Under the pieces are notes generated by a model. It was not told the origin of the DNA, searched no databases, and saw only the letters and a list, made by a program, of their open reading frames with translations. This document shows positions 11,836-30,777 of a DNA stretch of 35,455 nucleotides, piece after piece. Each line of letters starts with the position of its first letter. Within the stretch, counting starts at the first letter, position 1. Origin of the DNA: an uncultured Muribaculaceae bacterium (lineage in GTDB: Bacteria > Bacillota_I > Bacilli_A > RF39 > UBA660); contig CAZTUM010000003.1 of NCBI GenBank assembly GCA_964616645.1, positions 1-35,455 of the forward strand, written 5' to 3'. Both the position numbers and the translations under genes were made by a program.

Positions 11836-14800
11836 ATGAAAAATATAAAAATGAAAACTTGGTCTTTGATATTTAGTATTGTTACCGCGGGGATTTTAAT
11901 TTTATCAGGTACATATGCTTTATTTAAATGGACTTCTAGTGGAACAAATGTAGCAATTGATGCTCATTTAGGAGTAGTATATGAAAGAGAACATGAGACT
12001 TTAACTGGGACGTTAAATCCTACTAATAGTAAGGAAGGTGGACTAAGTACTAATATTACATTATGGACTACAACAAAGAAAACAAAAGTATATGGAACGT
12101 TATTCTTTTCTGTTAAAAGTATACCATCACCATTGAATACTAATAGTATGTTAAAATGGGAATTATGGAATGATAATACTAAAATTAGTAGTGGAGATTT
12201 TAATGGCTATGGAGAGGGGGATATAGTAGAACTTTTTAAAGATATAGAATTATCTAATGAAGAAGATATATTTACATTATATGTATGGTTAGATGATGAT
12301 TGTATAACTACAACAGATATAAAAGGTACTTCGATTGAGATAGATGTAGGAGCTTCAGCGGCACAAATACCAACTAGTGAAAGTTCAATTACTGTTGTAA
12401 ATAATTCACCTTCTCAAACTAATTGGGTAAAAAATTATACTTTATTATTAACCGCGACATCAACAGAATACAATATAACTGGATATGCAGTAACAACTTC
12501 TTCAGATACTCCATCAGCATATACGCAAATATCTAATGCAGGATTAACTTATAATTTGTCACATACAGTAGATGCAAATGGTAACTATTTTGTATGGTTT
12601 AGAAATCAAAATAATAAAATAGCTTATGAGGTTGTAGAAGTAAATAAAGTAGATAATATTAAACCTGTATTAAATAGAAATGGGGATTCTTCTGTTGATA
12701 TTGCTAATTCTAATGCTACGATTGTAATACCACTTAAAATAGTTGATACTCAAAGTGGTATTAATATAGATACATTTACTGATGATGATTTAATATTTAA
12801 AGTTGGAACTACTACTATAAGTCCAACTAAAAGTATTACTTATCAAAGTGTGAGTGATGGAGAATATTCATATTTATTAACTTTAAGTAATGTTACTGGG
12901 AATGGTAAATTAAATATAGAAGCTCCTTCTGGAGTAATAAGTGATACTGTAGGTAATACTAATATTTTAACTACAATTGACCCATTTATTGACATAGATA
13001 ATACTCCTCCAGTAGTCTCTTCTATAGAAGCTTCACAATATTCATCTACAATATCTATAAAAGCAACAGCTACAGATAGTTACGGAGTAGTAGATACTTA
13101 TTGGTATAGTATAGATGGGGAAAATTATTATAGTTCAAATAATTCTAATTATACATTTAATAATGTATCTAATGGTAGTTATACTGCTTATGTATATGTA
13201 AAAGATAAAGCGGGTAATACTTCAAATATAAAAGAACAAAGTGTAGTATTTGATAATGTACCACCTACATTAACATCTTTAAAAGTAACAACTTCTTCTG
13301 GTACATATGCATATGGTAGCGTAATTAATATAAGTGCAATATATAGTGAAAATGTTTTTGCAAGTGATGGAAAGGCAATAAATGCAAGTACTGCTCCAAC
13401 ATTATCATTAAAATTTGGAAATGGAACTTCAAAAAATGCTACATTTGTAAGTGTAAGTGATAATACTATAAATTATAAAGTAGTAGTAGATATTATAGAT
13501 TTAGGTGCTTTAACATTATCATCATATCAAGGTATAGTCTATGATCAAGCTTTAAATAGTTTAAATGTTACAGCAACAGAGTTAGGTGGTAATGCAGTTT
13601 CTGCATCTACAAAAGCAAAAATAGGTACAAATTACTATACAACATTAGCATCCGCGATCGCGGTATCAAGTACAACTAAAAGTATTACTATGGTAAATGA
13701 TACAACAGAGTGTGTAACAATACCAAGTACAAATAATATAACGTTAGATTTATATGGTAAGGTAATAACTTGTGATACATCAAATACATCTGCAATAACT
13801 AATAATGGAATACTTAAAGTAGTATCTAGTCAAACAAATGGTGAAATAAATAGTACATATTATGCAATAAATAATCTAGGTAGTTTAATTCTTACAAGTG
13901 GTAAAATTCAATCTACAAATAATGTTGCAGTATATAATAATTCAACAAAAACTCAAGCTAATGGAGTATCATTATATGTAGATGGTGCTACAGTAATTTC
14001 AACTTCTAATAGTGGAATAAATAACGTAACAACAGGTATAGTTACTGTTGCATCAGGAACCGTAAAAGGGGCATTAGGTGGTATATATAATACAACTACT
14101 GGTACTATAAATATTGGTTTATCTACAGATACACTAAGTACTACTAATCCAGCTGTTTATAATACTACTACATCATCATATGGTGTATATATGAATTCAT
14201 CTGGTACATTAAATTTATATAATGGGGCCATATATACTGCAAATACTAGTGTAGGAACAGCATACTTTAAAAATACATCTACTGTAACTGCAAGAAGTGG
14301 TTATCATATTACAACTGCTACAGATACATTAGGAGGAGTAACTTATAAAAAATCATATTTGGTAAGTGGAACAACTCAAATTCAATATAGAAAAGGTACA
14401 AGATACTGTGAATCATATACATGTTCTGGTACAAAGCAATCTTCAGAAACATCATCTTGTGTATATTCTTCTCCAGGAAGTGGTTGGACAAAACAAAGTG
14501 GAAGTTGTGCTTCTAAAACAGTTATATCAGGGACTTGTCAATGTGCAGGGGGGTCTGTAGCTAAGACAGATTGTGAAAAAGCGGGATTTAAAAGTGATAC
14601 CGATTGCTTTATTTGGTGTACAGGAGAAATGGGAGGTTCAACAGGTGAAGGTTGTACATCAACTAAATCTTATGCATATTACTATACTAAAACAATAACT
14701 GAATCTTATGAAAATACTGGTCAATCTAGTTGTAATTCAAGTGAAACTGCTACTTGTGAATCATATGATGTAGATTATGGTTCTTGGGGTACAACAGATT

Positions 14801-14889
14801 ATAGTAGTTATACATATTGTCAAAAAAGGACTTGTAATTTATCTTCTGAAGGTGTAGTAACAACGTGTGGTTCTGCTGGAAGTTGTTAG
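11836..14889 (+). CDS. Giant secreted/cell-surface protein (signal-anchor, Ig-like modules, beta-helix-like Thr/Asn repeats, Cys-rich tail)
   Basis: 1017 aa with RBS TAGGAGCG. The N-terminal hydrophobic segment ends in SGTYALFKW, which resembles the TasA/camelysin SipW-type signal motif GGGT-x-A-x-F. Modules are delimited by DNIKP, DNTPPVV and DNVPPTL. Aa ~590-830 consist of short repeats rich in T/N/G/S, typical of parallel beta-helix adhesins. The last 160 aa (14407-14886) hold 16 Cys. Confidence 0.8.
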   Translation: MKNIKMKTWSLIFSIVTAGILILSGTYALFKWTSSGTNVAIDAHLGVVYEREHETLTGTLNPTNSKEGGLSTNITLWTTTKKTKVYGTLFFSVKSIPSPLNTNSMLKWELWNDNTKISSGDFNGYGEGDIVELFKDIELSNEEDIFTLYVWLDDDCITTTDIKGTSIEIDVGASAAQIPTSESSITVVNNSPSQTNWVKNYTLLLTATSTEYNITGYAVTTSSDTPSAYTQISNAGLTYNLSHTVDANGNYFVWFRNQNNKIAYEVVEVNKVDNIKPVLNRNGDSSVDIANSNATIVIPLKIVDTQSGINIDTFTDDDLIFKVGTTTISPTKSITYQSVSDGEYSYLLTLSNVTGNGKLNIEAPSGVISDTVGNTNILTTIDPFIDIDNTPPVVSSIEASQYSSTISIKATATDSYGVVDTYWYSIDGENYYSSNNSNYTFNNVSNGSYTAYVYVKDKAGNTSNIKEQSVVFDNVPPTLTSLKVTTSSGTYAYGSVINISAIYSENVFASDGKAINASTAPTLSLKFGNGTSKNATFVSVSDNTINYKVVVDIIDLGALTLSSYQGIVYDQALNSLNVTATELGGNAVSASTKAKIGTNYYTTLASAIAVSSTTKSITMVNDTTECVTIPSTNNITLDLYGKVITCDTSNTSAITNNGILKVVSSQTNGEINSTYYAINNLGSLILTSGKIQSTNNVAVYNNSTKTQANGVSLYVDGATVISTSNSGINNVTTGIVTVASGTVKGALGGIYNTTTGTINIGLSTDTLSTTNPAVYNTTTSSYGVYMNSSGTLNLYNGAIYTANTSVGTAYFKNTSTVTARSGYHITTATDTLGGVTYKKSYLVSGTTQIQYRKGTRYCESYTCSGTKQSSETSSCVYSSPGSGWTKQSGSCASKTVISGTCQCAGGSVAKTDCEKAGFKSDTDCFIWCTGEMGGSTGEGCTSTKSYAYYYTKTITESYENTGQSSCNSSETATCESYDVDYGSWGTTDYSSYTYCQKRTCNLSSEGVVTTCGSAGSC
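13652..13663. repeat. Perfect 12-bp GC palindrome CCGCGATCGCGG inside the giant gene
   Basis: Read directly. It encodes S-A-I-A within LASAIAVSS and is the densest GC patch in the window. Confidence 0.95.
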
Positions 14890-14899
14890 GAGGCGTATT

Positions 14900-15625
14900 A
14901 TGAAAAATATATTTAATAAAGATAATTATAAATTACTTTTAATACTTCTAGTGTTGGTAATTGGGGCGATATTAATTATCGTCCTAATGAATACTGATAA
15001 GGATGATGATGGACCTATAACAGATTATAATGATGAAATTGCTAATGTAATACCATCTGAAGTAGAAAAATTATATAGAATAATTACTAATAATACTTGT
15101 AATGTTAATTATGGTTTTGATTTTACAGATACTAATAGTATTAAAGTAGAAGATATGGATGATGAAATAATTTTAACTATTATATTTAATAATTTAAAGG
15201 AGAATAATATTCTTAATTCTAAATTTAGTAAAGAAGAATATATTACTTATGCTTCTAATATATTAGGTACTAATATAGATATACCTAATGATTTTAGTAA
15301 TTTTAATTATGATGGTAATGTTTATAAAATAGAGAATAATAATATTATAAAAGATACTTCAATATGTCAAAATGAAGTTAATTATAAGAGTGTTTTATAT
15401 AGTTATTCATATAACTCTAATGATTTGAGTGTATATGTAAATTATATTATGATAAAAGATAATATAGCATATAACTTAGATGGTAGTATAATTGGTAATT
15501 ATTCTAAGGAAAAAGAAGAGTCTATTATGAATAGCGCTACTAGTTATGTATATAATTTTAAAAAGAATATTAATGGTTATTATTTAACTGAGGTATCTAA
15601 AGCTCTAGTTGAGATTAATAAATAA
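14900..15625 (+). CDS. Membrane-anchored hypothetical protein (241 aa)
   Basis: Start set at ATG 14900. Its RBS TAGGAGG overlaps the stop of the upstream gene. One N-terminal TM helix (LLLILLVLVIGAILIIVLM) followed by an extracytoplasmic domain with no recognisable family. Confidence 0.6.
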   Translation: MKNIFNKDNYKLLLILLVLVIGAILIIVLMNTDKDDDGPITDYNDEIANVIPSEVEKLYRIITNNTCNVNYGFDFTDTNSIKVEDMDDEIILTIIFNNLKENNILNSKFSKEEYITYASNILGTNIDIPNDFSNFNYDGNVYKIENNNIIKDTSICQNEVNYKSVLYSYSYNSNDLSVYVNYIMIKDNIAYNLDGSIIGNYSKEKEESIMNSATSYVYNFKKNINGYYLTEVSKALVEINK

Positions 15626-15663: not shown

Positions 15664-16680
15664 ATGAAAAGAATATCATTTATAGTATTTTTTCTTTTAT
15701 TAATAATTACTATATTATATTATTTTACAAATAATAATAATATTAAGACTAATACAACTAGTAGTGAGAATATAGAAGTATATTATCCTTCTTATAATAT
15801 AACAAAATTAGATAATTATATAGATTCATTTGTAGAAGAGATAATTAAATTACATAAACAAGAATATAATGGTGCTAAATTATATTTAGATTATGATATT
15901 GATGTAGATAATAAAAATATACATACAACTTTTTATACATATATAGAAAATGAAAATATATTAAAAACAAATATTACTAAAATAACTTATAATAAAATAA
16001 ATAAAGAAATAATTAAAGATAACGAAATATTGGTTACAAGTAATAATTATGATTTTATAAATAATAGAATAATAGATAAAGATAAAAAATTAGTTGCGTT
16101 AACTTTTGATGATGGACCTAGTTATAATACTATGAAGATAGTAGATATATTAAAAAAATATAATTCTACTGCAACATTTTTTGTAGTGGGTCAAAAAGTA
16201 GATAAATATAAAAATACTATTAAATATTTGAGTGATAATAATATGGAAATAGCAAATCATACATATACTCATAAATTATTATCAAAATTAGATGAGACAA
16301 GTATTTTAAAAGAAATAAAAGATACTCAAGAAGCAATATATAAAATTACTAATACATATCCTACATTATTTAGACCAAGTTATGGTACAGTATCTTCTAA
16401 GTTAAAGAGGATATCACCTATGCCAATTATAATATGGAATTTAGATACACTGGATTGGAAACATCATAATTCTAAGAAAATAGCAAATAAAATACTATCA
16501 AATGTTAGTGATGGTGATATTATTCTAATGCATGATACATATACTGCGAGTAGAAATGCTGTTGAAATAGTAATACCTAAATTAAAGGAACAAGGATATG
16601 AAATAGTTAGTGTTAGTGAATTATTTTATTATAAAAATGTAGTACCTATTAATGGTAAATATTATGGATATATTAAATAA
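15664..16680 (+). CDS. Polysaccharide/peptidoglycan deacetylase (NodB homology domain) with N-terminal TM anchor and an extra domain
   Basis: NodB motifs LTFDDGP, HTYTH and FRPSYG, plus LMHD near the C-terminus. About 140 aa of unassigned sequence lie between the TM anchor and the catalytic domain. Confidence 0.88.
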   Translation: MKRISFIVFFLLLIITILYYFTNNNNIKTNTTSSENIEVYYPSYNITKLDNYIDSFVEEIIKLHKQEYNGAKLYLDYDIDVDNKNIHTTFYTYIENENILKTNITKITYNKINKEIIKDNEILVTSNNYDFINNRIIDKDKKLVALTFDDGPSYNTMKIVDILKKYNSTATFFVVGQKVDKYKNTIKYLSDNNMEIANHTYTHKLLSKLDETSILKEIKDTQEAIYKITNTYPTLFRPSYGTVSSKLKRISPMPIIIWNLDTLDWKHHNSKKIANKILSNVSDGDIILMHDTYTASRNAVEIVIPKLKEQGYEIVSVSELFYYKNVVPINGKYYGYIK

Positions 16681-16699
16681 TATATCTTGAAAAATATAA
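16666..16699 (+). repeat. 34-bp direct repeat, left copy
   Basis: GGATATATTAAATAATATATCTTGAAAAATATAA. It includes the last four codons and the stop (GYIK*) of the deacetylase gene. It is identical to 19766-19799. Confidence 0.97.
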
Positions 16700-16825: not shown

Positions 16826-18058
16826 TTAAAAATTTAATGTTCCAATATAGAAATGATTATTGTTACTTTTTAATAAAATTGTTTTATTATTTAGAACATA
16901 AAAAGTTGGATATATATATTCATCTTTATATTCGCCTATTAATTGTACACTGTAAAATTTATTTTCATTGGGATTATATATGCTCCATTTTTCTAAATTA
17001 TGAAATAACATATTATCATTAAGAAATGGTGTTCTTCCGTAAAGTACATTAGAATCTGTTTCTTGTATTTTATTTGTAATAAAATTATAGTATGTTGTTT
17101 TCCCAGTTTGACTAATTTGTGTGTTGATTTTTCCAATATACAATCCTTTGTTATTTTTTTGAAAACTTGTTATAATCCAATCTTCTTTTAGGTTATTTGA
17201 AAATATAATAGATTCTTCATTATTTTTTAAATCAATTGATAGGATATCTTGTTTATTTTTATAATCTGTAGTACAAATTAACATTTCATTTTCAAAAACT
17301 TGAATTTCAAATATGCTACATAACATTGTCCCACTTTGATTTAGAACATCTCCATTATATTCTTTTAATGTAGTAATTTTTTCATCTTCTATTTGATATA
17401 TATTTAATGTTTGTTTTCTTTCTATTATTATATCATTAATAGATTTAAATTTATCATTTATAGTTACTACATACAATTTATTATTTGTATTTGAATAATG
17501 AAATATAGGAGTAGATATTGGGTCAAGTAATGTCCCTTCTTTTAAAATTTTACCATTATTTAATGTATTTTCAAATTTTATTATTGACCAATTATAACTT
17601 ATATTATCTAAAGGATTTTTAAATATTAATGATGCATATATTGTATTATCTAATATAAAATAGTTTAATATTCTATAATTTGAATCAAAATTGTAAATTT
17701 CAAATTTATCTTGTTCAAAGTCATATTTAAAAATATATTTTGTAACAAATAAATCATTATTGTTTGATGTATCAATTATATCACCGTATATATAATTTTG
17801 ATTTACTTTATTTATGGATACTTCATAAGTGTCTTTTAGGTACTTTTTAAGTTTATTATTTAAGCTGCTATCTGTTAAAGTAATGGTGTATGAAGTAGTG
17901 GAATTTTTTTCTATTTTGCTTTCTATAATATCTGTTTTAGTATTATTGGTTTCTAAATTGTTATTATAAATTTTTGTAAAAAATAATGATATAAGAACAA
18001 ATAATATCAAGAAACACATAAAAAATATGTCTCTTGAATTAAAATTTAATTTTTTCAT
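16826..18058 (-). CDS. Membrane-anchored 410-aa protein with a repetitive beta-rich ectodomain (beta-propeller-like, unassigned)
   Basis: N-terminal TM helix (FFMCFLILFVLISLFF). After it come recurring hydrophobic-strand plus Asn/Asp-turn units such as NNKLYVV, NEMLICTTDY, NKGLYIGKIN, NDNMLFHN, NNKTILLKSNNNHFYIG. The ATG lies 2 nt after the stop of the upstream gene and has no SD of its own, which suggests translational coupling. Confidence 0.7.
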   Translation of the reverse strand: MKKLNFNSRDIFFMCFLILFVLISLFFTKIYNNNLETNNTKTDIIESKIEKNSTTSYTITLTDSSLNNKLKKYLKDTYEVSINKVNQNYIYGDIIDTSNNNDLFVTKYIFKYDFEQDKFEIYNFDSNYRILNYFILDNTIYASLIFKNPLDNISYNWSIIKFENTLNNGKILKEGTLLDPISTPIFHYSNTNNKLYVVTINDKFKSINDIIIERKQTLNIYQIEDEKITTLKEYNGDVLNQSGTMLCSIFEIQVFENEMLICTTDYKNKQDILSIDLKNNEESIIFSNNLKEDWIITSFQKNNKGLYIGKINTQISQTGKTTYYNFITNKIQETDSNVLYGRTPFLNDNMLFHNLEKWSIYNPNENKFYSVQLIGEYKDEYIYPTFYVLNNKTILLKSNNNHFYIGTLNF

Positions 18059-18060
18059 AA

Positions 18061-18840
18061 TTATTGAATAATATATCTATTTGATGAACTAACTGTGTTA
18101 TATACATTAGTTGCTGTATCCATATGTTCTCCTAATACACTTCCATTACCATAACTACCATACCAAGTATCAACATAATATATATAATTAATACCTGTGC
18201 TATCTCCAAATGCTGCAGTATATGTGTATCCATTAACAGTTAAGTAGTGTCCTAACATTGTTCCATTATACATTGCTAAAGAACTTGTATTAGCATGTAA
18301 AATAATTGGTTTGTTTGAACTAATTCTATTTTTTACTAAAGTAGAAAATGTAGATGAAGTGTAATTTGAGCCTAAAACATAACTGTAGTTTTGTGATGTG
18401 TAATTATTAAGTGCATTTTTTATTGCATATACGTATGTTCCATTTGTAGAATTTGTTCCCATATAGCTAGCATATGTTGATTGACTAGATGATGTTCCAT
18501 TTAAATATTGAACTACTTGTTTAACGTTTGCGGGTCCACAATAGTAGCTATTTTCTTGTTGATAATTTGTTATAGATAGTTTTGAGACAAAATATCTTGG
18601 TTGAATTACATTTTTACTTAATGATTCCAATTCATCATCAATTTTTAATAAATATTCATTAGTAAATAATGTCCCATTTGAGCAAGTAATGTCTAAATCA
18701 TTTGGGTCTGTATTTTTTATAATGTAATCATATTCTTCATTGGTATAAATTTCACAGTTATTATTTGTATCTGCTAAAACTGATTTTGAAAATGCGAGTA
18801 CACAAATTATAGAAAATATAAGTAATTTTTTTAAATTCAT
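18061..18840 (-). CDS. Secreted papain-fold cysteine peptidase (C39-like)
   Basis: Start set at ATG 18840, behind the strong RBS AAAGGAGGA. Signal peptide MNLKKLLIFSIICVLAFSKSVLA. Q-x5-C pattern QQENSYYCGPA (oxyanion Gln plus catalytic Cys), followed by GHYLTVNGY (His) and YYVDTW (Asp), spaced as in C39-type peptidases. Confidence 0.65.
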   Translation of the reverse strand: MNLKKLLIFSIICVLAFSKSVLADTNNNCEIYTNEEYDYIIKNTDPNDLDITCSNGTLFTNEYLLKIDDELESLSKNVIQPRYFVSKLSITNYQQENSYYCGPANVKQVVQYLNGTSSSQSTYASYMGTNSTNGTYVYAIKNALNNYTSQNYSYVLGSNYTSSTFSTLVKNRISSNKPIILHANTSSLAMYNGTMLGHYLTVNGYTYTAAFGDSTGINYIYYVDTWYGSYGNGSVLGEHMDTATNVYNTVSSSNRYIIQ

Positions 18841-18950
18841 AAAATTCCTCCTTTTAAAAAGTAAGTACTTACAATTGTAATTATACATTTTATAATAAAA
18901 AAAACTACCCATTATTAGTAGAAAAAACTCTTCTTTTGGTGGAATATATT

Positions 18951-19583
18951 CTATTTGCAAGTAAATTCGTTTTTTTGTTCCATTCCAATTTTATCTGAAT
19001 GGATTATATTAATTAATTCTGAATTTTCAAAGATTATATTTGGAGTTTCTGATATATATGATTTATTTATGTTAAATGTGAATTCATAATTTTCTCCTAT
19101 TTTTAAATCTTTAGATATTGTTTTTGGTAATTTAATTGTGTAGATGCCTTCTACTTGGTATTCTTTAAATGTTACATACAAGTAATTTTCATCATTACTT
19201 GAATTTATATTACTTATATTATAAGTTTTTATTAGTATGCAATCATAGTTGTTAATATTATTATCTTTAGTTTTTTGAGTGATGGTAAAAAATATTATTA
19301 AAATTGTTAGTAAACCAATACTAATTATTATTGGTATTACAATTATTTTCTTTTTTATGTGGTAAATTTTCTTTTTATCTTTTCCATCTAATAATTCTTC
19401 TATTGAAATTTCTAATATTTCACATAATTTTTTTAAAATTGATATATCTGGGATTGAATTTCCACATTCCCATTTGGAAACAGCTTTAAAGCTAACTCCT
19501 ACAAGCTCTCCAAGTGTTTGCTGAGTTAATCCTTTTTCTTTTCTTTTTCTTTTGATATATTCTCCAATTTTTTGATTATTCAT
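18951..19583 (-). CDS. Membrane-anchored XRE-family HTH regulator with a small extracytoplasmic domain
   Basis: Start set at ATG 19583 (RBS GGAGTGA). HTH_3-type LTQQTLGELVGVSFKAVSKWECGNSIPDISILKKLCEILEISIEELL. A TM helix IIVIPIIISIGLLTILIIFF follows, then ~100 aa of beta-rich ectodomain with Cys near each end. Confidence 0.8.
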   Translation of the reverse strand: MNNQKIGEYIKRKRKEKGLTQQTLGELVGVSFKAVSKWECGNSIPDISILKKLCEILEISIEELLDGKDKKKIYHIKKKIIVIPIIISIGLLTILIIFFTITQKTKDNNINNYDCILIKTYNISNINSSNDENYLYVTFKEYQVEGIYTIKLPKTISKDLKIGENYEFTFNINKSYISETPNIIFENSELINIIHSDKIGMEQKNEFTCK

Positions 19584-19765
19584 GTATATCACTCCAATAC
19601 TACAAACTTTTGTTATATATTTATTATACATTATTTTTTTTGATAATATTAAAAAAAATTACGCATATAATATTTTACTGAAATTTGATAAGAATATTGA
19701 AGGTTTATATTTTTACTAAAAAATGGATAATGTTTTAAAAAGATAATTTCTAAGTGTTAAACTTG

Positions 19766-19799
19766 GGATATATTAAATAATATATCTTGAAAAATATAA
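19766..19799 (+). repeat. 34-bp direct repeat, right copy
   Basis: Identical to 16666-16699. The flanking bases differ on both sides (T vs G at -1, C vs T at +35). Confidence 0.97.
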
Positions 19800-19815: not shown

Positions 19816-19844
19816 TATAATGTTTAAGAAGTAAGGTGATTCTA

Positions 19845-20408
19845 ATGGGAAACAAATTATATAGATTTGTAAGATTTATAGGTGTACCAATATTTAAAAT
19901 ATTATATAGACCTACTATTATAGGAAGTGATAATATTCCAAGTACTGGTAATGTTGTTTTAGCGGGTAATCATACAAATAATTTAGATTGTGCTTTATTA
20001 ATAACATCAACAAAAAGAACAATACATTTTTTAGCTAAAAATGAACTTCATAAAGGTAAACTAGGATGGTTTTTTACTTCTATGGGGACTATTCCAGTAG
20101 ATAGAAAACATAAAGATAAAATGGCTCTTATAAGTGCTATAGATACTTTAAATAATGGTAATGTAATTGGGATATTTCCAGAAGGGACAACAACTAAAGA
20201 TGGGAATATACTTCCATTTAAAGTAGGGGCGGTAGTTATGGCAAATCGTACAAATTCAAAAATAGTACCATTTAAAATAGAAGGAAAATATCGTATATTT
20301 AGAAAAAGTGTAAAAATAATTTTTGATAAACCATATTATGTAGGTGATGATATAGAAAAAGCTAATAATATTTTAAGAGATAAAATTATTAAACTAAAAG
20401 CAAAATAG
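19845..20408 (+). CDS. plsC: 1-acyl-sn-glycerol-3-phosphate acyltransferase-like (PlsC family)
   Basis: Start set at ATG 19845 (RBS AAGGTGA). HX4D motif NHTNNLD, plus FPEGTT and PFKVGAVVMA blocks. Confidence 0.8.
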   Translation: MGNKLYRFVRFIGVPIFKILYRPTIIGSDNIPSTGNVVLAGNHTNNLDCALLITSTKRTIHFLAKNELHKGKLGWFFTSMGTIPVDRKHKDKMALISAIDTLNNGNVIGIFPEGTTTKDGNILPFKVGAVVMANRTNSKIVPFKIEGKYRIFRKSVKIIFDKPYYVGDDIEKANNILRDKIIKLKAK

Positions 20409-23657: not shown

Positions 23658-25589
23658 ATGAGAAAGAAAAATGGCTTTACTTTAATAGAGTTATTAGCAA
23701 CATTACTAATTATTTGTCTTATAACTACTATTGCAGTTATAACAATCAAAGATAATATAGAAAATACAAAGGATAAAGCGCAAAAACTTACTCAAAATGC
23801 TCTTTTTCAAGCTTCAAGTGCTTATGTAGCAGAATATAAAACAAATAGTACAGATTGGTATACAGAGTATACTGAAGAAGATGATGCATATAAAGAAACT
23901 GGTAATGAATATGCTTGTACTACAATTCAAATGTTAATTGATAAGGGATACTTAAAAAATAATATAATAGATGCAAAGACAAATGAAAGAATAAACCATA
24001 ATACTCAAATACAAATAATAAGAAATAAAACTACTAAAGTAATTTTTAAAAAAGTTATAATGTCTAGTCAAGTATGCAAAGAATTAGATAGTGTAATTCC
24101 TAGTGTAACGTTTACTCCAGATGGTAGTAATTTGGTGTATAAACCAACAGTAACAATAACATCAATAACAGGTGAGTCTAATGTTAAATCTATGGCTTAT
24201 TATATAAAAAAAGATAATAATAAATATCAAGAGGTTACTACTACTTCTTATTTAGGGGAAATAACTATAGAAGAAATAGATGGAGAAAGTATTAGAGTAT
24301 GTGCTAATGTAACAAATGGTATTGATGTAAGTAGTGGAGAGGTATGTAGTAATTATTTTAATGTTGATAATACTCCTCCAAAAATAGATAAAATAGAGAA
24401 TGTTAATGGTTCTAATATTGTTAATGTAACAGTAATAGAAAAAAATATTGATAGTTATTGTTTAACAAAAGAAAATAATATTAATAATTGTATATGGGTA
24501 AATATTACTTCTAATATATTTAATATAAATGTAGAAGAAGAGGGAGATTATTATATATATATAAAAGATAAAGTAAATTTAATTAGTAATGATGAAAATA
24601 ATAAAGTAAGTATATCTATAGATAAGGATATACCTTCAGTTATATTTACTCCTAATGGGACTGATATATGGAGTAAAAGTATAGACGTAAAGTTAACCAA
24701 AATTACAGGCACATCGGGAATTAAAAATACAAATTATTATATTAAAAAAGATAATATTAAATATAGGGAAAATACTAGTACAACTACAGATGATGAAATA
24801 ATTACAGTAGATGTAGAAGGTAGTAATATATATGTTTGTGCAGTAGTAGAAAATAAAATAGGTATAACAAGTGGAGAGATATGTAGTAATATATATAAAA
24901 TAGATAATACTCCACCTAAAGTAGAATTATCTTCTTTAAATTTTTCTGGGGAAATACAGATAGATGTAATTGAAGATAATATTGATAGTTATTGTATAAC
25001 AAAAGATAATGATACTGATAATTGTACATGGATAGAAACTTCTGAAAATAATTTTAATACTACTGTTACAGAAGAGGGGACATATAATGCATATGTTAAA
25101 GATAAGGCTAATAATATAGGGACTTCTTCTATAAATATTATACTAGAAAAGACTATAACTGTAGATTGTAGTGTATCTAATACAAATGGTGTTTGTACAA
25201 TATCAGAAAATATAGATGATATAGGAGAAATTAGTAGTATTACTACTTCAAATGGTGTTATAAGCTATAGTTTAAATGAAAAGACTATAACATTAACTTT
25301 TAAACAAGGTATTTATACTCAAGGTACGGCGTTGGAATGTAATTGTACTACTACTGTTACAGAAGAATGTACATGTGGGCAAAGATGTTGTACTCCTCAA
25401 GGGGGAGGGTCAGGAGGCTCTTCATATTGCGAAAGTGGAGGTGGAGGTAGTAGTTGTTTAGTTTGTTATGATGTTTCCTGTGTTTCGGGGTTATGTGATT
25501 ATAATGAGTGTAAAGAGAAAAAAACAACTACTTGTAATACATGCTATACATATCAATATCAAGCTACAATAAAATATAAACCAGAATAG
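23658..25589 (+). CDS. Giant modular type IV pilin-like protein (prepilin-type N-terminal cleavage/methylation signal)
   Basis: MRKKNG/FTLIELLATLLIICLITTIAVI is a canonical class III signal: Gly-1, Phe+1, Glu+5, then a hydrophobic alpha-1 helix. The protein is 643 aa, with a pilin-like head (~aa 30-140), two tandem ~178-aa two-domain units and a Cys/Gly-rich tail (14 Cys in aa 561-629, nt 25338-25544). RBS TAGGAGAG. A -10-like TAGAAT preceded by TGG lies upstream. Confidence 0.8.
   Translation: MRKKNGFTLIELLATLLIICLITTIAVITIKDNIENTKDKAQKLTQNALFQASSAYVAEYKTNSTDWYTEYTEEDDAYKETGNEYACTTIQMLIDKGYLKNNIIDAKTNERINHNTQIQIIRNKTTKVIFKKVIMSSQVCKELDSVIPSVTFTPDGSNLVYKPTVTITSITGESNVKSMAYYIKKDNNKYQEVTTTSYLGEITIEEIDGESIRVCANVTNGIDVSSGEVCSNYFNVDNTPPKIDKIENVNGSNIVNVTVIEKNIDSYCLTKENNINNCIWVNITSNIFNINVEEEGDYYIYIKDKVNLISNDENNKVSISIDKDIPSVIFTPNGTDIWSKSIDVKLTKITGTSGIKNTNYYIKKDNIKYRENTSTTTDDEIITVDVEGSNIYVCAVVENKIGITSGEICSNIYKIDNTPPKVELSSLNFSGEIQIDVIEDNIDSYCITKDNDTDNCTWIETSENNFNTTVTEEGTYNAYVKDKANNIGTSSINIILEKTITVDCSVSNTNGVCTISENIDDIGEISSITTSNGVISYSLNEKTITLTFKQGIYTQGTALECNCTTTVTEECTCGQRCCTPQGGGSGGSSYCESGGGGSSCLVCYDVSCVSGLCDYNECKEKKTTTCNTCYTYQYQATIKYKPE
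24087..25142 (+). repeat. Intragenic tandem duplication (two ~178-aa units) within the pilin-like gene
   Basis: Unit 1 begins DSVIPSVTFTPDGS, unit 2 begins DKDIPSVIFTPNGT. They align throughout: YYIKKDN, VCA.V.N.I...SGE.CSN....DNTPPK, NIDSYC.TK.N...NC.W, EEG.Y..Y.KDK.N. Confidence 0.8.
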
Positions 25590-26826: not shown

Positions 26827-26868
26827 TAAATCCTAATGGACTTACTATTTTTTTCTAGGAAGGAGTAT

Positions 26869-27558
26869 ATGAATAATAGTTTTAAAAATTTACCTAATGA
26901 AGAAAAGCCACGTGAAAGATTAAAAAAATATGGAAGAGATAATTTGTCTAATGAAGAATTACTTGCAATTGTATTAAAGACAGGTACTCATGATATACCA
27001 GTAGATGAACTGGCTAAAAATCTTTTAGTAGAATTAGGTAGTATTACTAAATTAAAGGATGTTTCACTAGCTAAATTATTAAGTATAAAAGGTATAGGAG
27101 AGGTAAAGGCGTTAACTTTATATGCCATGATTGAACTGGGAAAGAGAATATATAAAAATGTAAATCTTACTAAAAGGTATAAACTTAGTAATCCAGAAGA
27201 TATAATTAATTATTATAATGATACATTAATAGATAAAAAGCAAGAAGAATTTCATGTGTTATATTTAGATAGTAATAATAATATTATTACTACAAAAAGA
27301 TTATTTATAGGTACAATTAATCGTTCGATAGTTCATCCAAGAGAGATATTTAAAGAAGCGTATTTAAATTCTGCTTGTAAAATAGTATGTATTCATAATC
27401 ATCCTACTGGTAATATAACACCTAGTAAAGAGGATATATTTATAACAAGAACTATTGATGAAATAGGGAGAATTCATGATATAAAATTATTAGACCATTT
27501 AATTATTGGGAAAGATAGCTATTTTAGTTTTTATGAGAATAAATATTTAAAAAATTAA
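26869..27558 (+). CDS. radC: RadC-family JAB/MPN-domain protein
   Basis: Start set at ATG 26869 (RBS GGAAGGAG). N-terminal PRERL..G...LS..ELLAI.L.TG, helix-hairpin-helix IKGIGEVKA, and the JAMM motif HNHPTGNITPSKED. Confidence 0.9.
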   Translation: MNNSFKNLPNEEKPRERLKKYGRDNLSNEELLAIVLKTGTHDIPVDELAKNLLVELGSITKLKDVSLAKLLSIKGIGEVKALTLYAMIELGKRIYKNVNLTKRYKLSNPEDIINYYNDTLIDKKQEEFHVLYLDSNNNIITTKRLFIGTINRSIVHPREIFKEAYLNSACKIVCIHNHPTGNITPSKEDIFITRTIDEIGRIHDIKLLDHLIIGKDSYFSFYENKYLKN

Positions 27559-27617
27559 ATAATACTTTTAAAAACAATATTTATGTTATATAATAAAACT
27601 AGGAGGAGGACAAGATT

Positions 27618-28472
27618 ATGAAAAGGAAAAAAAATATGCCATTAAAATATATAATATTAATAATAATACTTATCCTTCTAATTTTACTTTTAATATTTAA
27701 TTATACGTTAAAGGATGACCGTAAATTATCTAAAGTAGAATCTGTATTTAAAGATACTGTAACATGTATAATAAAAGTATTGCGTACTCCTATAGATTAT
27801 ATAGGTGATATTATAAGTGATTTTAAAGAGCTTAAAGATGTTCAAAAGGAAAATCAATTATTAAAAGATTCTTTAGAAAAAGTAGATTATGTTAATACTG
27901 AAAATATTGAATTAAAAAGGCAAATAGAAAAGTTAAAAGAGGAGTTGGATATAGAATATAGTTTAACTGATTATGAGTATTTAAATAGTACAATAATTAG
28001 TCGTAATATTGGATATTGGTATAATACAATTACGATTGATAAAGGAAGTTATAATGGTGTAAAAAAAGATATGCCTGTTGTAAATAAACAAGGTTTGATA
28101 GGAAGAGTAGTAAGTACAACTAATTTTACTTCTGTTGTAAAATTGATAACTACAACGGATACATCAAATAAATTATCAGTATTAGTAACTGATGGGAATT
28201 ATGATTTATATGGTTTATTATATCAATATGATGAGGTTGATAATTTACTTTTGGTTGAGGGGATAAGTAATACGGATAAGGTAAATATAAATGATTTAGT
28301 GTATACAAGTGGGATGGGAGGAATATTTCCAAGTGGAATTATGATAGGTAAGGTAACTTCTATTTCTACGGATTCTTATGGTTTATCAAAAATAATTAAG
28401 GTATCTCCATCTGTAGATTTTTCATCATTAAATTATGTAACTATATTAAAAAGAAAGGATGAATTAAAATGA
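27618..28472 (+). CDS. mreC: Rod shape-determining protein MreC
   Basis: TM anchor, a coiled-coil (ENQLLKDSLEK...LKRQIEKLKEEL), then the beta-barrel region with GLIGRVVS...SVVKLITT and GGIFPSGIMIGKV. Confidence 0.85.
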   Translation: MKRKKNMPLKYIILIIILILLILLLIFNYTLKDDRKLSKVESVFKDTVTCIIKVLRTPIDYIGDIISDFKELKDVQKENQLLKDSLEKVDYVNTENIELKRQIEKLKEELDIEYSLTDYEYLNSTIISRNIGYWYNTITIDKGSYNGVKKDMPVVNKQGLIGRVVSTTNFTSVVKLITTTDTSNKLSVLVTDGNYDLYGLLYQYDEVDNLLLVEGISNTDKVNINDLVYTSGMGGIFPSGIMIGKVTSISTDSYGLSKIIKVSPSVDFSSLNYVTILKRKDELK

Positions 28473-28972
28473 TTTATCCTTTAACTATTATAATTATATC
28501 TTTTATTATAGATGGTATAACTTCATTATATATAAATATAAACTATACATATGTATCAATTTTTTCTACGATATATACACTTATTGCTATTGTTATGGTA
28601 TCTAAATATATTAAAAATGATAAAAAATACTATTTAACATATATTTTAACAGGGTTAGCGTTTGATTTTTCATATACGAATACTTTTATATTAAATATGA
28701 CTGTATTTTTTATCTTAAGTTTAATTATTAAGAAATTATCATATATATTTACAGATAATTTTATTAATAATATTATAATATCATATATAACTATTATTTT
28801 ATATTATATTTTAACAAATATTATACTTGTAGTAGTGGGTTATATTACTTTTAATATTTATTTATTAATAAAAATATTATATAGTAGTATTATTATGAGT
28901 ATTATATATACTATTATAATATATATATTAAATAGTATAAAAGATAAGGTATCAGGTAATAAAATAAGATAA
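28469..28972 (+). CDS. mreD: Rod shape-determining protein MreD (by position and topology)
   Basis: 167-aa polytopic membrane protein. Its start overlaps the mreC stop (ATGA). Sequence conservation is weak, as is usual for MreD. Confidence 0.6.
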   Translation: MIYPLTIIIISFIIDGITSLYININYTYVSIFSTIYTLIAIVMVSKYIKNDKKYYLTYILTGLAFDFSYTNTFILNMTVFFILSLIIKKLSYIFTDNFINNIIISYITIILYYILTNIILVVVGYITFNIYLLIKILYSSIIMSIIYTIIIYILNSIKDKVSGNKIR

Positions 28973-29000
28973 GATATCATATTATTTATTGGTGAATAAT

Positions 29001-29600
29001 ATGGAAATAGATATAAATAGTAAATATTTAAAAAAGAAAAAGGATAATAAAATAGTATCAAAATATTTTAAAGGATTATTATATCGTATTTTAATTAGTA
29101 TGCTTATTTTTTTATCACTTGGTATATTTATTAAATCATCAAATAAAAATAAAGAGATGGTATATGAAAATATATATAATAATAATTTTTTATATACTAA
29201 GGCTTTAAAATATTATGATAAATATTTAAAAGGAGTATATCCTTTTTCTAAATTATTTAATCAAGATACAAGTTTAGTTTTTAGTGAAAAATTAGTATAT
29301 ACTTCTCAAAATAAATATTTAGATGGTGTTAAATTAACCGTTGATACTAATTATTTAGTACCTATATTAGAAGATGGTATAGTTATTTATATTGGAGATA
29401 AACCTAATTATGGAAATACAATTATAATTCAGGGTATAGATGAAATAGAGATATGGTATGCAAATATTAATAATAGTAATGTTTCTTTATATGATTATGT
29501 TACTAAGGGGAGTTTGTTAGGAGAAGTAAATGATAATTATTTATATTTAGTATATAGTCAGAATGGAAAGTATTTAAACTATGAAGAGTTTCTTAAATAA
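29001..29600 (+). CDS. spoIVFA: SpoIVFA-like protein (TM anchor plus degenerate M23/LytM domain)
   Basis: Start set at ATG 29001. It has one TM helix. The C-terminal LytM-like fold (GVKLTVDTN...GIVIYIG...YGNTIIIQG...IWYANI...V..GSLLGEV) lacks the metal-binding His residues. Its position before an M50 protease and rplU matches B. subtilis spoIVFA. Confidence 0.55.
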   Translation: MEIDINSKYLKKKKDNKIVSKYFKGLLYRILISMLIFLSLGIFIKSSNKNKEMVYENIYNNNFLYTKALKYYDKYLKGVYPFSKLFNQDTSLVFSEKLVYTSQNKYLDGVKLTVDTNYLVPILEDGIVIYIGDKPNYGNTIIIQGIDEIEIWYANINNSNVSLYDYVTKGSLLGEVNDNYLYLVYSQNGKYLNYEEFLK

Positions 29601-30360
29601 AATAGAGTTTTCTAATTATTTTTTATTTTTAGCGATATCTTTTGTTTTAGTGGGATATTATAAGAATTTAATAATTTTTACTTCATTAATATTAATTCAT
29701 GAATTAGGGCATGTTCTAATAGCAAAGCTATTTAACTATGAAGTTCAAAAAATTATTATTTATCCATATGGGGGATTAACAAAATTAGATAGTATTATTA
29801 ATAAGAAAATAATTCATGAGTTTTTAATAAGTATATCAGGATTAGTTATGCAGATATTATTTTATTATTTAATTATTTTTATTAATTTAAAATATTATAT
29901 TTTTAATGATTATACTATATATCTTTTAACTGCGTATCATAAAAGTATGTTATTTTTTAATTTATTACCTATAATTCCATTAGATGGTTTTAAAATTATA
30001 AATTGTTTATTAACTAAAATATGTTCTTATAATTTAAGTAATCATATAAGTATATATTTATCTTTAATAACATTAATTATATCTATTTATATAACAAGAA
30101 ATGATTTAAATTATACTTATATAATGACAATATGTATATGTCTTAAGAATATTTATTTATTTTATAAAGAAAGTAGTTATTTATTTAATAGATTTATTTT
30201 AGAGAGATATTTATATTCTTTTAAATTTAAACATACGAAAATAATTAATGATTATCATAATATGTATAAAGAATATAATCATATTATTAAAGATAATGAT
30301 AAATATTTAAAAGAAAAAGACTTTTTATCAAAAATGTTTGACAATCCATATCATTTATGA
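29581..30360 (+). CDS. spoIVFB: Site-2 (M50) intramembrane metalloprotease, SpoIVFB-like
   Basis: HELGH in TM helix 2 and FNLLPIIPLDG (NxxPxxxLDG) later in the protein. It overlaps the preceding gene by 20 nt, and the synteny spoIVFA-spoIVFB-rplU is conserved. Confidence 0.75.
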   Translation: MKSFLNKIEFSNYFLFLAISFVLVGYYKNLIIFTSLILIHELGHVLIAKLFNYEVQKIIIYPYGGLTKLDSIINKKIIHEFLISISGLVMQILFYYLIIFINLKYYIFNDYTIYLLTAYHKSMLFFNLLPIIPLDGFKIINCLLTKICSYNLSNHISIYLSLITLIISIYITRNDLNYTYIMTICICLKNIYLFYKESSYLFNRFILERYLYSFKFKHTKIINDYHNMYKEYNHIIKDNDKYLKEKDFLSKMFDNPYHL

Positions 30361-30378
30361 TAAAATCTTATATGTTTG

Positions 30379-30452
30379 TAAGACCTCTGTTGTTAATTCA
30401 ACCGCGCTAAAAAGGTTATAAGAGTGATATACCACCTTACGGGCGAGTCTTA
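30379..30452 (+). promoter_or_regulatory. Structured 5' leader of the rplU operon (possible L21-leader-type autoregulatory RNA)
   Basis: This is an unusually GC-containing intergenic patch. TAAGACCTC (30379-30387) can pair with GAGTCTTA (30445-30452) with one bulge, enclosing smaller GGTTATA/TATACC pairing. A ribosomal leader is known before rplU in Bacilli. The assignment is not verified. Confidence 0.35.
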
Positions 30453-30474
30453 TTTAAAATTTAAGGAGGTAAAT

Positions 30475-30777
30475 ATGAAAGCAATAATTGAAACTGGTGG
30501 TAAGCAATACTACGTAACAGAAGGAAGTGTTATTTACGTTGAAAAACTAGATATTCCTACTGATGGAGAAGTTATTTTTGACAAGGTACTATTAGTAGAT
30601 GGTACTGCAGGTAATCCTTATGTTGCTTCTGCTAAAGTAACTGGTGTTGTACTAAAACAAGGTAAAAATAAGAAAATTACTATTTTTAAGTATAAACCTA
30701 AGAAAAAATCAACAAGAAGAAAAGTTGGACATAGACAACCATATACTAAAGTTGAAATTAAAACTATTACTAAGTAG
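30475..30777 (+). CDS. rplU: 50S ribosomal protein L21
   Basis: Start set at ATG 30475 (RBS AAGGAGG). [17 protein letters not shown]...[11 protein letters not shown]...[11 protein letters not shown] is canonical L21. Confidence 0.95.

Follow-up and report, generated by a model that had tools for sequence, protein, structure and literature searches.

A candidate envelope module of uncultured gut Bacilli encoding a membrane-tethered XRE-type regulator, an exported C39-like peptidase and a membrane-anchored β-propeller

The three-gene cassette

We describe a three-gene cassette on contig CAZTUM010000003.1 (assembly GCA_964616645.1), a stretch of DNA that was analysed over its full 35,455 nucleotides (nt) and is referred to here as the window. 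The cassette encodes, in this order, a predicted membrane-tethered regulator of the XRE type (gene 1), a predicted exported cysteine peptidase related to the C39 family (gene 2), and a membrane-anchored protein with a predicted β-propeller fold (gene 3). A perfect 34-nt repeat (GGATATATTAAATAATATATCTTGAAAAATATAA) brackets exactly these three genes, which gives a cassette of about 3.1 kb with the following parts:

18951–19583, minus strand: gene 1, an open reading frame (ORF) of 210 amino acids (aa) with a helix-turn-helix (HTH) domain, one transmembrane (TM) helix and an ectodomain, called from an HTH_3 match and a single TM segment
18061–18840, minus strand: gene 2, a predicted pre-pro cysteine peptidase of 259 aa (Peptidase_C39_2, PF13529, 8.6e-13)
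16826–18058, minus strand: gene 3, a single-pass membrane protein of 410 aa with an extracytoplasmic β-propeller predicted by AlphaFold2 (AF2), belonging to a new family
16666–16699, plus strand: left copy of the 34-nt direct repeat (repeat family D2), holding the last five codons (four sense codons and the stop) of a deacetylase gene
19766–19799, plus strand: right copy of the 34-nt direct repeat (repeat family D2), upstream of a PlsC-type acyltransferase gene

All three genes are under purifying selection, with ratios of nonsynonymous to synonymous substitution rates (dN/dS) of 0.12–0.14 for gene 2, 0.18–0.28 for gene 1, and 0.28–0.42 for gene 3; constraint is strongest on the peptidase and weakest on the propeller. 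Homologous loci were fetched for comparison and are denoted by L-numbers, with W for the window copy; they were scanned with hidden Markov models of the components and, together with the window, comprise 460 kb.

Gene 1, a predicted membrane-tethered XRE-type regulator

The product of gene 1 divides into three parts:

19377–19565, minus strand: Cro/C1-type HTH, residues about 7–69 (Pfam HTH_3, HTH_19 and HTH_31; matches in the PDB span residues 1–70)
19281–19349, minus strand: TM helix, residues about 79–101, preceded by a lysine-rich stretch (Kyte-Doolittle scan)
18954–19277, minus strand: ectodomain, residues 103–210, about 108 aa, modelled by AF2 as a small β-barrel resembling the oligonucleotide/oligosaccharide-binding (OB) fold

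The HTH_3 match (PF01381) covers residues 10–64 with an E-value of 2.4e-14 and 53.6 bits against a cut-off of 23, and the nearest solved relatives of this domain, according to PDB sequence matches, are the P22 C2 repressor and SinR. The Kyte-Doolittle scan finds a sole hydrophobic segment, at residues 76–105 approximately, with a mean hydropathy of 3.15. Because the sequence KKKIYHIKKK precedes this segment, the positive-inside rule places the N-terminus inside the cell. With this predicted topology, gene 1 fits the definition of a transmembrane transcription regulator, which combines a cytoplasmic HTH and a TM helix in one polypeptide. That the membrane-bound protein regulates a promoter is suggested by a single line of evidence, a conserved palindrome confined to the HTH-bearing lineages (discussed below). 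An alternative, longer ORF would start from the ATG at 19631, and the homologs begin at the ATG at 19583. At the other loci where orthologs of gene 1 head the triad, they are 41–68% identical to it.

RodZ has a comparable layout, in which an XRE-type HTH at the N-terminus and a small β domain at the C-terminus are joined by one TM helix. We rejected gene 1 as a RodZ: it has no HTH_25 or DUF4115 match at E≤1, it is an accessory gene, and its ectodomain belongs to a family that mostly lacks an HTH. Gene 1 is neither core nor fixed; it occurs in at least five unrelated neighborhoods, is frameshifted in one locus (L026), and has lost its HTH in another family member (P0054).

Gene 2, a predicted exported C39-like peptidase

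Two segments precede the catalytic part of gene 2:

18772–18840, minus strand: Sec-type signal peptide, residues 1–23, with a hydrophobic stretch at residues 3–25 after MNLKK and a cleavage site, predicted from the sequence, between SVLA and DT
18586–18771, minus strand: acidic N-terminal extension, residues 24–85, with two conserved cysteines, a putative pro-region (charge, conserved motif)

Gene 2 matches PF13529 over profile positions 2–143 of 143 with an E-value of 8.6e-13 and 49.5 bits against a cut-off of 24. In an alignment of 29 family members, Q95, C101, H182, and H198 are invariant, while D225 is conserved but replaced by Asn in four members. As aligned, these residues form the Gln/Cys/His/Asp(Asn) arrangement of papain-type enzymes, and peptidase activity is predicted from the family and from the catalytic residues. 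The N-terminal extension (62 aa, isoelectric point (pI) 4.05, net charge −9) is acidic against a mildly basic catalytic part (pI 8.5) and is for this reason a putative pro-region. It carries the motif C..Y..EEY.YI.KNTDP.DLDL.CSNGT, which is kept in the close subfamily and gone from distant members. Gene 2 also has a conserved QPRY motif, near which any autoprocessing might take place.

Homologs of gene 2 fall into 37 clusters in an index of 5.8 billion proteins. Scans of NCBIfam, PADLOC, and the PHROGs gave for gene 2 only weak similarity to two endolysin PHROGs near the catalytic Cys (E-value 3e-6 over 70 residues), and for gene 1 only matches through its generic HTH; sequence and profile searches of the PDB with gene 2 gave nothing significant (best match "P210", E-value 0.034). 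We found no characterized stand-alone secreted C39_2 enzyme in the literature. Classification of gene 2 as a classical C39 leader peptidase was rejected, as the protein is exported and stand-alone, has no PF03412 match, and has neither a double-glycine small ORF nor a conserved ABC exporter as a neighbor; no small ORF with a double-glycine motif occurs in the non-coding stretches of the cassette. The architecture of a polymorphic toxin is likewise absent from gene 2, whose 259 aa are accounted for by the signal peptide, the pro-region, and a single catalytic domain.

Gene 3, a membrane-anchored propeller

The AF2 model of gene 3 (predicted local distance difference test (pLDDT) 85.6) has a helix at residues 8–37, the N-terminal TM segment, followed by about 28 strands in an all-β arrangement. 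A Foldseek search of the PDB returned 401 matches at E≤0.001, and the top 50 listed are almost all propellers of the WD40/DDB1 type with TM-scores of 0.43–0.49. Gene 3 is thus a β-propeller by modelled fold only, and the strand count points to seven blades. It has no match in Pfam, NCBIfam, PADLOC, PHROG, or PDB profiles, and the same holds for 46 divergent relatives in Pfam and NCBIfam; sequence profiles of known propeller families (WD40, PD40/TolB, DUF5050, and others) do not match it either.

The gene 3 family comprises 15 clusters in the index of 5.8 billion proteins. An exhaustive HMMER scan of 1.84 billion representatives gave 65 clusters at 50% identity, all 350–415 aa long and with the same architecture, and there were no homologs in 2.9 million viral contigs. 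Only two species representatives exist among 185,579 genomes: one is an uncultured "Bacilli bacterium" metagenome-assembled genome (MAG), and the other is a short contig in a Muribaculaceae MAG, which may be misbinned.

The ATG of gene 3 lies 2 nt past the stop codon of gene 2. Gene 2 has a perfect AGGAGG, gene 3 has no Shine-Dalgarno sequence, and the gap between the two genes is 0–5 nt across the triad clade. The missing Shine-Dalgarno sequence and the short gap support translational coupling of gene 3 to gene 2.

Regulatory DNA between genes 1 and 2

The 110-nt spacer between genes 1 and 2 is conserved far above what would be expected for such divergent proteins (alignment A6). A hairpin with a run of eight T follows the stop codon of gene 1, and a −10 box, a palindrome, AGGAGG, and the ATG of gene 2 come after it in this order:

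18897–18927, minus strand: hairpin (T)TCTAC-N9-GGGTAG followed by T8, directly after the gene 1 stop; CTAC and GTAG are invariant in five divergent lineages
18880–18885, minus strand: −10-like box TATAAT, putative promoter of genes 2 and 3; TAnAAT is conserved in alignment A6
18861–18872, minus strand: perfect 12-bp palindrome GTAAGTACTTAC, putative operator of the gene 1 HTH, from its conservation and position
18845–18853, minus strand: strong ribosome-binding site (RBS) of gene 2, AAGGAGGAA; GGAGGAA is invariant in alignment A6

The sequence TAAGTACTTA occurs exactly once in the window, at the palindrome, and all of its exact copies in the 460 kb precede a peptidase start by 31–40 nt. In five of five lineages with an HTH-ectodomain protein the palindrome, with no more than one mismatch, is found 31–40 nt upstream of the peptidase ATG, and in L001 its outer pair covaries, so that a double change (ATAAGTACTTAT) keeps the symmetry. 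It is absent from all three of the HTH-less loci (L011, L013, and L015). Its presence in all HTH-ectodomain lineages and its absence from the HTH-less loci make the palindrome the probable operator for the HTH of gene 1. It lies between the −10 box and the RBS and overlaps the point at which transcription probably begins, a placement that suggests repression.

In an RNAalifold analysis of the hairpin, CTAC and GTAG are paired with almost no covariation, and the folding energy of the spacer RNA is weak (−5.3 kcal/mol). A similar inverted motif occurs in L036 (about 2190–2215) with no T-run. Given the near absence of covariation and this T-less motif, the hairpin could be a terminator, an attenuator, or a protein-binding site. 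In the five lineages the TTCTAC...GGGTAG motif includes two direct copies of TTCTAC and one inverted copy. We do not claim the spacer as a riboregulator, given its weak folding energy and near-zero covariation. A consensus promoter scan gave 39 sites against 38 expected and is uninformative at 22% G+C; the lone "terminator" that it returned lies inside the TM coding region of gene 3 and is probably due to chance.

The initial annotation of the window, made from the DNA letters and a list of ORFs, had already placed three ORFs at these positions and assigned to them an HTH with a TM helix and ectodomain, a signal-peptide-bearing C39-like peptidase, and an anchored, repetitive β-rich ectodomain. 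It had also proposed the Gln/Cys/His/Asp residues of gene 2 (Q95, C101, and H198 being invariant and D225 Asp or Asn in the 29 members), a pro-like region ahead of the peptidase (about 62 aa as delimited here), a −10-like element and strong RBS in the 110-nt gap, and translational coupling of gene 3; all of these calls are borne out. Remote homology and structure searches add only generic fold matches for the propeller and the ectodomain, and no significant PDB relative of gene 2 by sequence or profile.

Recurrence and composition of the module

In five lineages the genes stand in the order HTH-ectodomain protein, peptidase, propeller, and the lowest protein identities are 41% for gene 1, 55% for gene 2, and 35% for gene 3. 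The flanking genes differ in each:

Window (W): polysaccharide deacetylase on one side, PlsC on the other
L001 type (L001, L017, L025, L026): helicase and Fic, with an integrase nearby
L005 type (L005–L007): PAP2 and PBP2-MraY-FtsW
L008 type (L008–L010, L018, L027): FtsEX and YitT
L021 type (L021, L022): LysM protein and AP endonuclease

Between these contexts, DNA similarity starts at the ATG of gene 1 and ends at the stop codon of gene 3. Since the same order recurs in five lineages with unrelated flanks, the triad is a real module. In three further loci (L011, L013, and L036) the peptidase and the propeller are also adjacent, at 26–47% identity, and the arrangements that depart from the triad of the window are as follows:

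L011 type: propeller (27% identical, E-value 5e-21) then peptidase, with a convergent gene for a 149-aa TM-anchored ectodomain protein that has no HTH (E-value 3e-14)
L013 type: no ectodomain gene; peptidase then propeller, inside a conjugative element between its VirB4/M23 and type IV coupling protein genes
L015 type: a copy in decay, made up of an ectodomain protein, a propeller fragment, and a peptidase that lacks its signal peptide
L021 type: gene 1 and the peptidase gene separated by an additional ectodomain gene that stands alone
L036: in order, a tethered regulator of the XRE type whose ectodomain (250 aa) is a different one, a secreted protein of 233 aa, the peptidase, and the propeller

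Peptidase and propeller form the constant core, a pair present in eight lineages, one of them in a conjugative element, and the regulator varies. The initial annotation had proposed a three-gene system and named the failure of the genes to co-occur elsewhere, or the identity of gene 1 with RodZ, as grounds for dismissing it. At least five lineages, whose flanking genes differ, have the three genes in the order seen here, and gene 1 is an accessory gene with no HTH_25 or DUF4115 match. The recurrence of the triad therefore stands, while its fixity does not: the core is the peptidase-propeller pair, and the ectodomain is an independent family. Also in line with that annotation, we found no described system with this combination of genes in the searchable literature. 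The families are tiny and almost entirely metagenomic. Around the pair in L036 (1439–2140 and 4341–6288) lie further secreted or lipoprotein-like genes (233 and 221 aa), an Amidase_3 cell-wall hydrolase, and Abi_2, surroundings that hint at a larger envelope or conflict island.

The ectodomain family

The AF2 model of the gene 1 ectodomain (pLDDT 89.1, predicted TM-score 0.80) is the small OB-like β-barrel mentioned above. Foldseek matches in the PDB and BFVD are weak, with best E-values of about 0.004–0.01, and all are generic OB folds; there is no Pfam relative above threshold, no PADLOC or PHROG relative, and no PDB sequence match. When the ectodomain by itself was used for a profile search, 96 clusters were returned, most of which are TM-anchored proteins that stand alone, are about 150 aa long, and have no HTH. 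On these sequence data, the ectodomain is an independent new family that often adjoins the peptidase-propeller pair as a separate protein, in three layouts: convergent in L011, upstream in L015, and as an extra copy in L021. In P0054 the HTH of gene 1 has been deleted naturally and in frame, and the TM segment and the ectodomain are kept. Another protein, P0136, was considered as a fusion of Sigma70_r2 to the ectodomain, which would have been a third signalling architecture, and was rejected because its sequence is that of a deletion chimera without a TM segment. Sub-threshold Pfam echoes of the ectodomain (DUF928, Imm43, YxzE, and DUF2500) are not used as evidence.

In L019 (3801–6450), L020, and L037 (4463–6537), ectodomain genes lie directly downstream of pairs of extracytoplasmic function (ECF) sigma and anti-sigma genes (DUF4179-like or zf-HC2) in an operon-like arrangement, which suggests that the OB-like domain also serves as an accessory of anti-sigma signalling. 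A fusion of reverse transcriptase to Cas1 (RT-Cas1), together with Cas2, is found about 0.8–1 kb downstream of the orphan ectodomain gene in L019 (7254–9406) and L020 (7491–9576), with an uncalled gap between.

Accessory status and mobility

The module is accessory, strain-variable, and horizontally exchanged. L029 (6328–8368) and L034 (6304–7187) share 99.6% identity until the ectodomain gene ends; from there on L029 has the peptidase and propeller and L034 a secreted 202-aa protein. Both continue with PadR and FtsW-like genes that are only about 72% identical, and the position is a replaceable slot that adjoins a conserved ABC transporter. In L028 and L030–L034, the slot held by the pair in the near-identical L029 is filled by an unrelated secreted protein. 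L026, compared with L025 of the L001 lineage, has a 1-nt deletion in the HTH region of gene 1 (5699) and a G-to-A stop in gene 3 (8092), and its peptidase is intact. This is either decay in progress or, at the first site, sequencing error.

In the window, the 34-nt repeat indicates a 3.1-kb insertion into a short intergenic spacer. The repeat far exceeds the usual length of a target-site duplication, and no recombinase is nearby. Candidate routes of insertion are att-like recombination in trans and homology-facilitated illegitimate recombination. A search for an empty site with the deacetylase flank returned only one Logan contig of 1076 nt (L035), which ends at the repeat; because nothing else was returned, the repeat is the one indication of insertion here. 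L035 is the sole other contig with the exact deacetylase protein of the window, and it ends 15 nt past the gene, inside the 34-nt repeat. Its end is probably an assembly break caused by the repeat, so that short-read assemblies would tend to fragment at the cassette. The other copies have no convincing flanking direct repeats; a 21-nt AT-rich repeat in L005 may be due to chance. We rejected the cassette as an autonomous mobile element, since neither the cassette nor the window contains a transposase or integrase, homology ends at the boundaries of the coding sequences, and the long repeat is found only at the window copy.

The initial annotation had described the insert as mobile-looking. The changes of context and the one bracketing 34-nt repeat agree with that label, with no mobility gene and no empty site found in the searches above.

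Surroundings of the cassette in the window

By gene content the window, at about 24% G+C, is ordinary chromosome. It encodes leucyl-tRNA synthetase, ApbE, FtsW/RodA, ZnuA, LexA, a lipid block of PlsC, acyl-CoA ligase, and CDP-alcohol transferase, RadC-MreC, and RecD2, as well as an M23/M50 pair followed by ribosomal protein L21. Gene and domain scans of the whole 35.5 kb found no tRNA, integrase, or transposase. Genes 1–3 are on the minus strand, and the surrounding genes are almost all on the plus strand. The cassette lies between the polysaccharide deacetylase gene (15664–16680) and the PlsC-type acyltransferase gene (19836–20408).

Just upstream of the deacetylase are two overlapping genes. 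One (11836–14889) encodes a predicted surface protein of 1017 aa with a signal or anchor segment, weak matches to immunoglobulin-like domains, and a C-terminus rich in Cys, Gly, Ser, and Thr; the other (14867–15625) encodes a TM protein of 252 aa with no family match. At 23658–25589 there is a 643-aa protein with an N-terminal prepilin-type N-methylation motif (PF07963) and no further domain match, which is unusually long for a pseudopilin. The region 26836–30777 contains, in order, RadC, MreC, a small ORF, an M23-domain protein, an M50 protease, and ribosomal protein L21, an order that we take to resemble the radC-mreBCD-minCD-spoIVFA/B-rplU region of Bacillus subtilis. Spo0A is present in L008. 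The order from radC to rplU and the Spo0A of L008 suggest that these very low-GC gut Bacilli descend from spore-formers.

Comparison with known systems

ToxR/TcpP, CadC, and BcrR are examples of transmembrane transcription regulators. Transmembrane one-component regulators are a recognized and widespread class (PMC10269533). Gene 1 shares with them the cytoplasmic DNA-binding domain, the TM helix, and the extracytoplasmic sensor, and is predicted to act on the adjacent promoter. It differs in that its HTH is of the Cro/C1 XRE type and not an OmpR-type winged helix, its sensor belongs to a new OB-like family with members that have no DNA-binding domain, and its putative targets are a secreted peptidase and a propeller.

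Members of PF13529 are known chiefly as catalytic domains of phage endolysins and as uncharacterized secreted "C39-like" proteins, and the literature on Peptidase_C39_2 consists mostly of endolysin catalogues. Gene 2 shares with this family an above-threshold score and the Gln/Cys/His/Asp signature. Unlike the endolysins, it is stand-alone, has a signal peptide and an acidic, Cys-containing pro-region, lacks a cell-wall-binding domain, is chromosomal instead of phage-borne, and is obligatorily paired with a membrane propeller. The C39 domains of ABC exporters (ComA/LagD type) belong to a common papain-like clan and also have the Gln before the catalytic Cys. However, they are cytoplasmic, fused to the ABC protein, and cut double-glycine leaders, whereas gene 2 is exported and unfused, has no PF03412 match, and has no gene for a leader peptide beside it. 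Tox-PL-C39 domains occur in toxins of Firmicutes and Bacteroidetes that are delivered by the Sec or type VI secretion system (Zhang et al. 2012, PMC3482391). These toxins are large and multidomain and carry RHS or other repeats, the C39-related domain is at their C-terminus, and no immunity protein was identified for them (PMC3482391). The likeness to gene 2 lies in a C39-related papain-fold peptidase outside the cell, in Firmicutes among others, with Sec export possible; gene 2, by contrast, is a small single-domain pro-enzyme with a fixed propeller neighbor.

In staphopain/staphostatin, SpeB/Spi, SleB/YpeB, and LapG/LapD, an exported peptidase or other hydrolase that could be dangerous is encoded beside, and co-transcribed with, a cognate protein that restrains, stabilizes, or localizes it. 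LapD and YpeB are membrane-anchored, and staphostatins are small, cytoplasmic β-barrels. The logic of the present module is similar, with gene 3 anchored like LapD and YpeB and the ectodomain a small barrel like the staphostatins. Staphostatin, YpeB, and LapD are not among the top Foldseek matches of gene 3 or the ectodomain, and we detected no relation in sequence or fold. To our knowledge, none of these pairs uses a β-propeller or a tethered XRE regulator.

DUF2500 proteins (PF10694; type Escherichia coli YhhM; PDB 3q6c) resemble the stand-alone ectodomain proteins in combining an N-terminal TM anchor with a small OB-like barrel. DUF2500 is the only echo of the ectodomain in both sequence (five of 61 members, best E-value 0.001, scores below the family thresholds) and structure (3q6c, target-normalized TM-score 0.61). 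No function of DUF2500 or YhhM was found in the literature, and as DUF2500 itself is without a known function the resemblance explains nothing. As an exported hydrolase that is regulated and has a partner in the membrane, the present module belongs to a type already known; what is new in it is the combination of genes, the two families, and the candidate operator.

Proposed function and alternatives

The anatomy of the genes, the predicted folds, conservation, co-occurrence, the operator-like palindrome, and purifying selection together lead us to propose, as the likeliest of the readings considered, an accessory envelope module whose exported pro-peptidase and propeller partner in the membrane are controlled by a tethered repressor; to this reading we assign a probability of roughly 0.4. 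Gene 1 would sit in the membrane as a dimer with its HTH in the cytoplasm, bind GTAAGTACTTAC, and most likely repress the transcript of genes 2 and 3, which the hairpin and T-run after gene 1 may insulate from transcription of gene 1. The ectodomain would receive an extracytoplasmic cue. Because the ectodomain family accompanies the pair even without a DNA-binding domain, the ectodomain most likely detects the peptidase or the propeller, or else their product. Repression would be lifted or strengthened when the ectodomain is bound or cleaved, and feedback control would result. Gene 2 would be exported by Sec as a zymogen, and the matured papain-fold peptidase would cut an envelope substrate, possibly the peptide stems of peptidoglycan or surface proteins, of the producer or of its neighbors. 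Gene 3, translated by coupling, would be the obligate membrane-anchored partner of the peptidase, which it may dock or restrain as an anchor, gatekeeper, or protector.

Several points weigh against this proposal. We infer the binding of DNA by gene 1, the direction of regulation, all of the protein contacts, and the substrate, and the model leaves the switching of a membrane-tethered repressor unexplained. Gene 1 itself has no copy of the palindrome upstream, and L036, which has a related HTH with a different ectodomain, lacks it as well; the palindrome could serve another factor or act at the RNA level. The pair is present without any regulator in L013. Conversely, the ectodomain is found without the pair after the ECF sigma and anti-sigma genes of L019/L020 and L037, and alone in L028 and L030–L034, so it may be a general sensory or shielding module instead of a dedicated partner of the peptidase. 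Lastly, gene 2 lacks a domain for binding the cell wall and resembles endolysins only weakly.

An antagonistic role overlaps with this proposal and differs only in that the target is other cells. Gene 2 would then be a Sec-secreted toxin that is bacteriolytic or degrades surface proteins, the propeller and/or the ectodomain protein would be outward-facing immunity, and the regulator would tune expression, possibly by sensing incoming peptidase. The patchy, strain-variable distribution, the decayed copies, and carriage on a conjugative element all agree with such a role, as does the gene order: effector and immunity genes are usually arranged in this way, with the effector first and, tightly coupled to it, a gene whose product is an extracytoplasmic membrane protein. 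Immunity genes typically persist as orphans and occur in tandem, as ectodomain genes do where there is no peptidase (L028, L030–L034, and L019) and in L021, respectively. The partner has also evolved more quickly than the enzyme, endolysins repeatedly use C39_2 as their catalytic domain, and C39-related peptidases are catalogued as toxin domains (Tox-PL-C39; PMC3482391). However, a 370-aa propeller is large for an immunity protein, and the peptidase has neither a targeting or cell-wall-binding domain nor the architecture of a polymorphic toxin. Genes 2 and 3 have no PADLOC match, and the Imm43 matches of ectodomain members are sub-threshold. The peptidase of L026 is moreover intact despite the stop in gene 3, which would be suicidal if gene 3 were the only immunity against a toxin acting on its producer. 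On balance, we regard antagonism as possible but doubtful. A more specific idea is that the ectodomain family is a dedicated extracytoplasmic binder of the peptidase (an inhibitor, immunity protein, or decoy substrate), which is fused here to an HTH and reads the occupancy or cleavage of the secreted protease at the protease's own operator. Such a one-polypeptide "protease sensor" loop would drive a system of bacteriolysin and propeller immunity moving between gut Bacilli, and we think it rather unlikely.

In another scheme, gene 2 acts on gene 1, as a site-1 protease that clips the ectodomain so that an intramembrane protease can free the HTH, as in anti-sigma or TcpP-type cascades, with the propeller as adaptor or gate. 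The ectodomain and the peptidase share a compartment and are always co-encoded in the triad clade, a second, unrelated tethered XRE regulator accompanies the pair in L036, and ectodomain genes follow ECF sigma/anti-sigma pairs, which are classic targets of regulated proteolysis. The window encodes an M50-family intramembrane protease (29581–30360), but this gene lies beside rplU in what, by the gene order of B. subtilis, is a conserved spoIVFA/B-like position, and is probably dedicated to sporulation. In L011 and L015 the ectodomain protein has no cytoplasmic domain to free, and L013 has no regulator. The operator's position points to a repressor, and it is not obvious that freeing such a protein from the membrane would lift its repression. 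The circuit would control only its own protease, with no other evident output; this scheme appears quite unlikely. We consider it very unlikely that the module serves phage defense or surface exclusion, with the peptidase and propeller modifying or shedding a surface receptor or cleaving phage receptor-binding proteins and the regulator sensing attack on the envelope. The cassette is accessory and mobile, and some copies have island-like, defense-type neighbors, namely a superfamily 1 helicase/DUF2726, Fic, and integrase in L001, Abi_2 in L036, and RT-Cas1/Cas2 in L019/L020. Other copies, however, lie among ordinary cell-wall and lipid genes, the search of 2.9 million viral contigs found no propeller homolog, and in PADLOC genes 2 and 3 have zero matches and gene 1 matches only through its generic HTH. 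We know of no defense system of this composition that works entirely outside the membrane. Finally, gene 2 shares a clan with the C39 leader peptidases, and the domain layout of RodZ is similar to that of gene 1. Processing of a double-glycine leader of a bacteriocin or pheromone precursor, or a RodZ with unrelated neighbors, is nevertheless largely refuted and extremely improbable, since both miss their defining features (PF03412, an ABC fusion, and a double-glycine leader in the former case, HTH_25 and DUF4115 in the latter). The observation behind the initial annotation is confirmed, and its interpretation is partly supported, with antagonism and release of the regulator, the two schemes that it had put forward, as candidate readings.

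Significance

The propeller and the ectodomain represent two families without annotation or a structural or functional relative, in a module that is compact (3.1 kb), conserved, mobile, under selection, and uncharacterized. Because the regulatory hypothesis is defined in sequence, as a tethered XRE repressor and a 12-bp operator, it is directly testable in a heterologous host. Should the ectodomain sense the peptidase, transmembrane one-component regulators would have an input logic of a new kind. Should the peptidase prove bacteriolytic, it would provide a new lysin scaffold and, with it, a new class of outward-facing immunity protein. All three proteins are predicted to act at the surface of uncultured, very low-GC Bacilli of the human gut, in which envelope biology and competition are almost uncharted.

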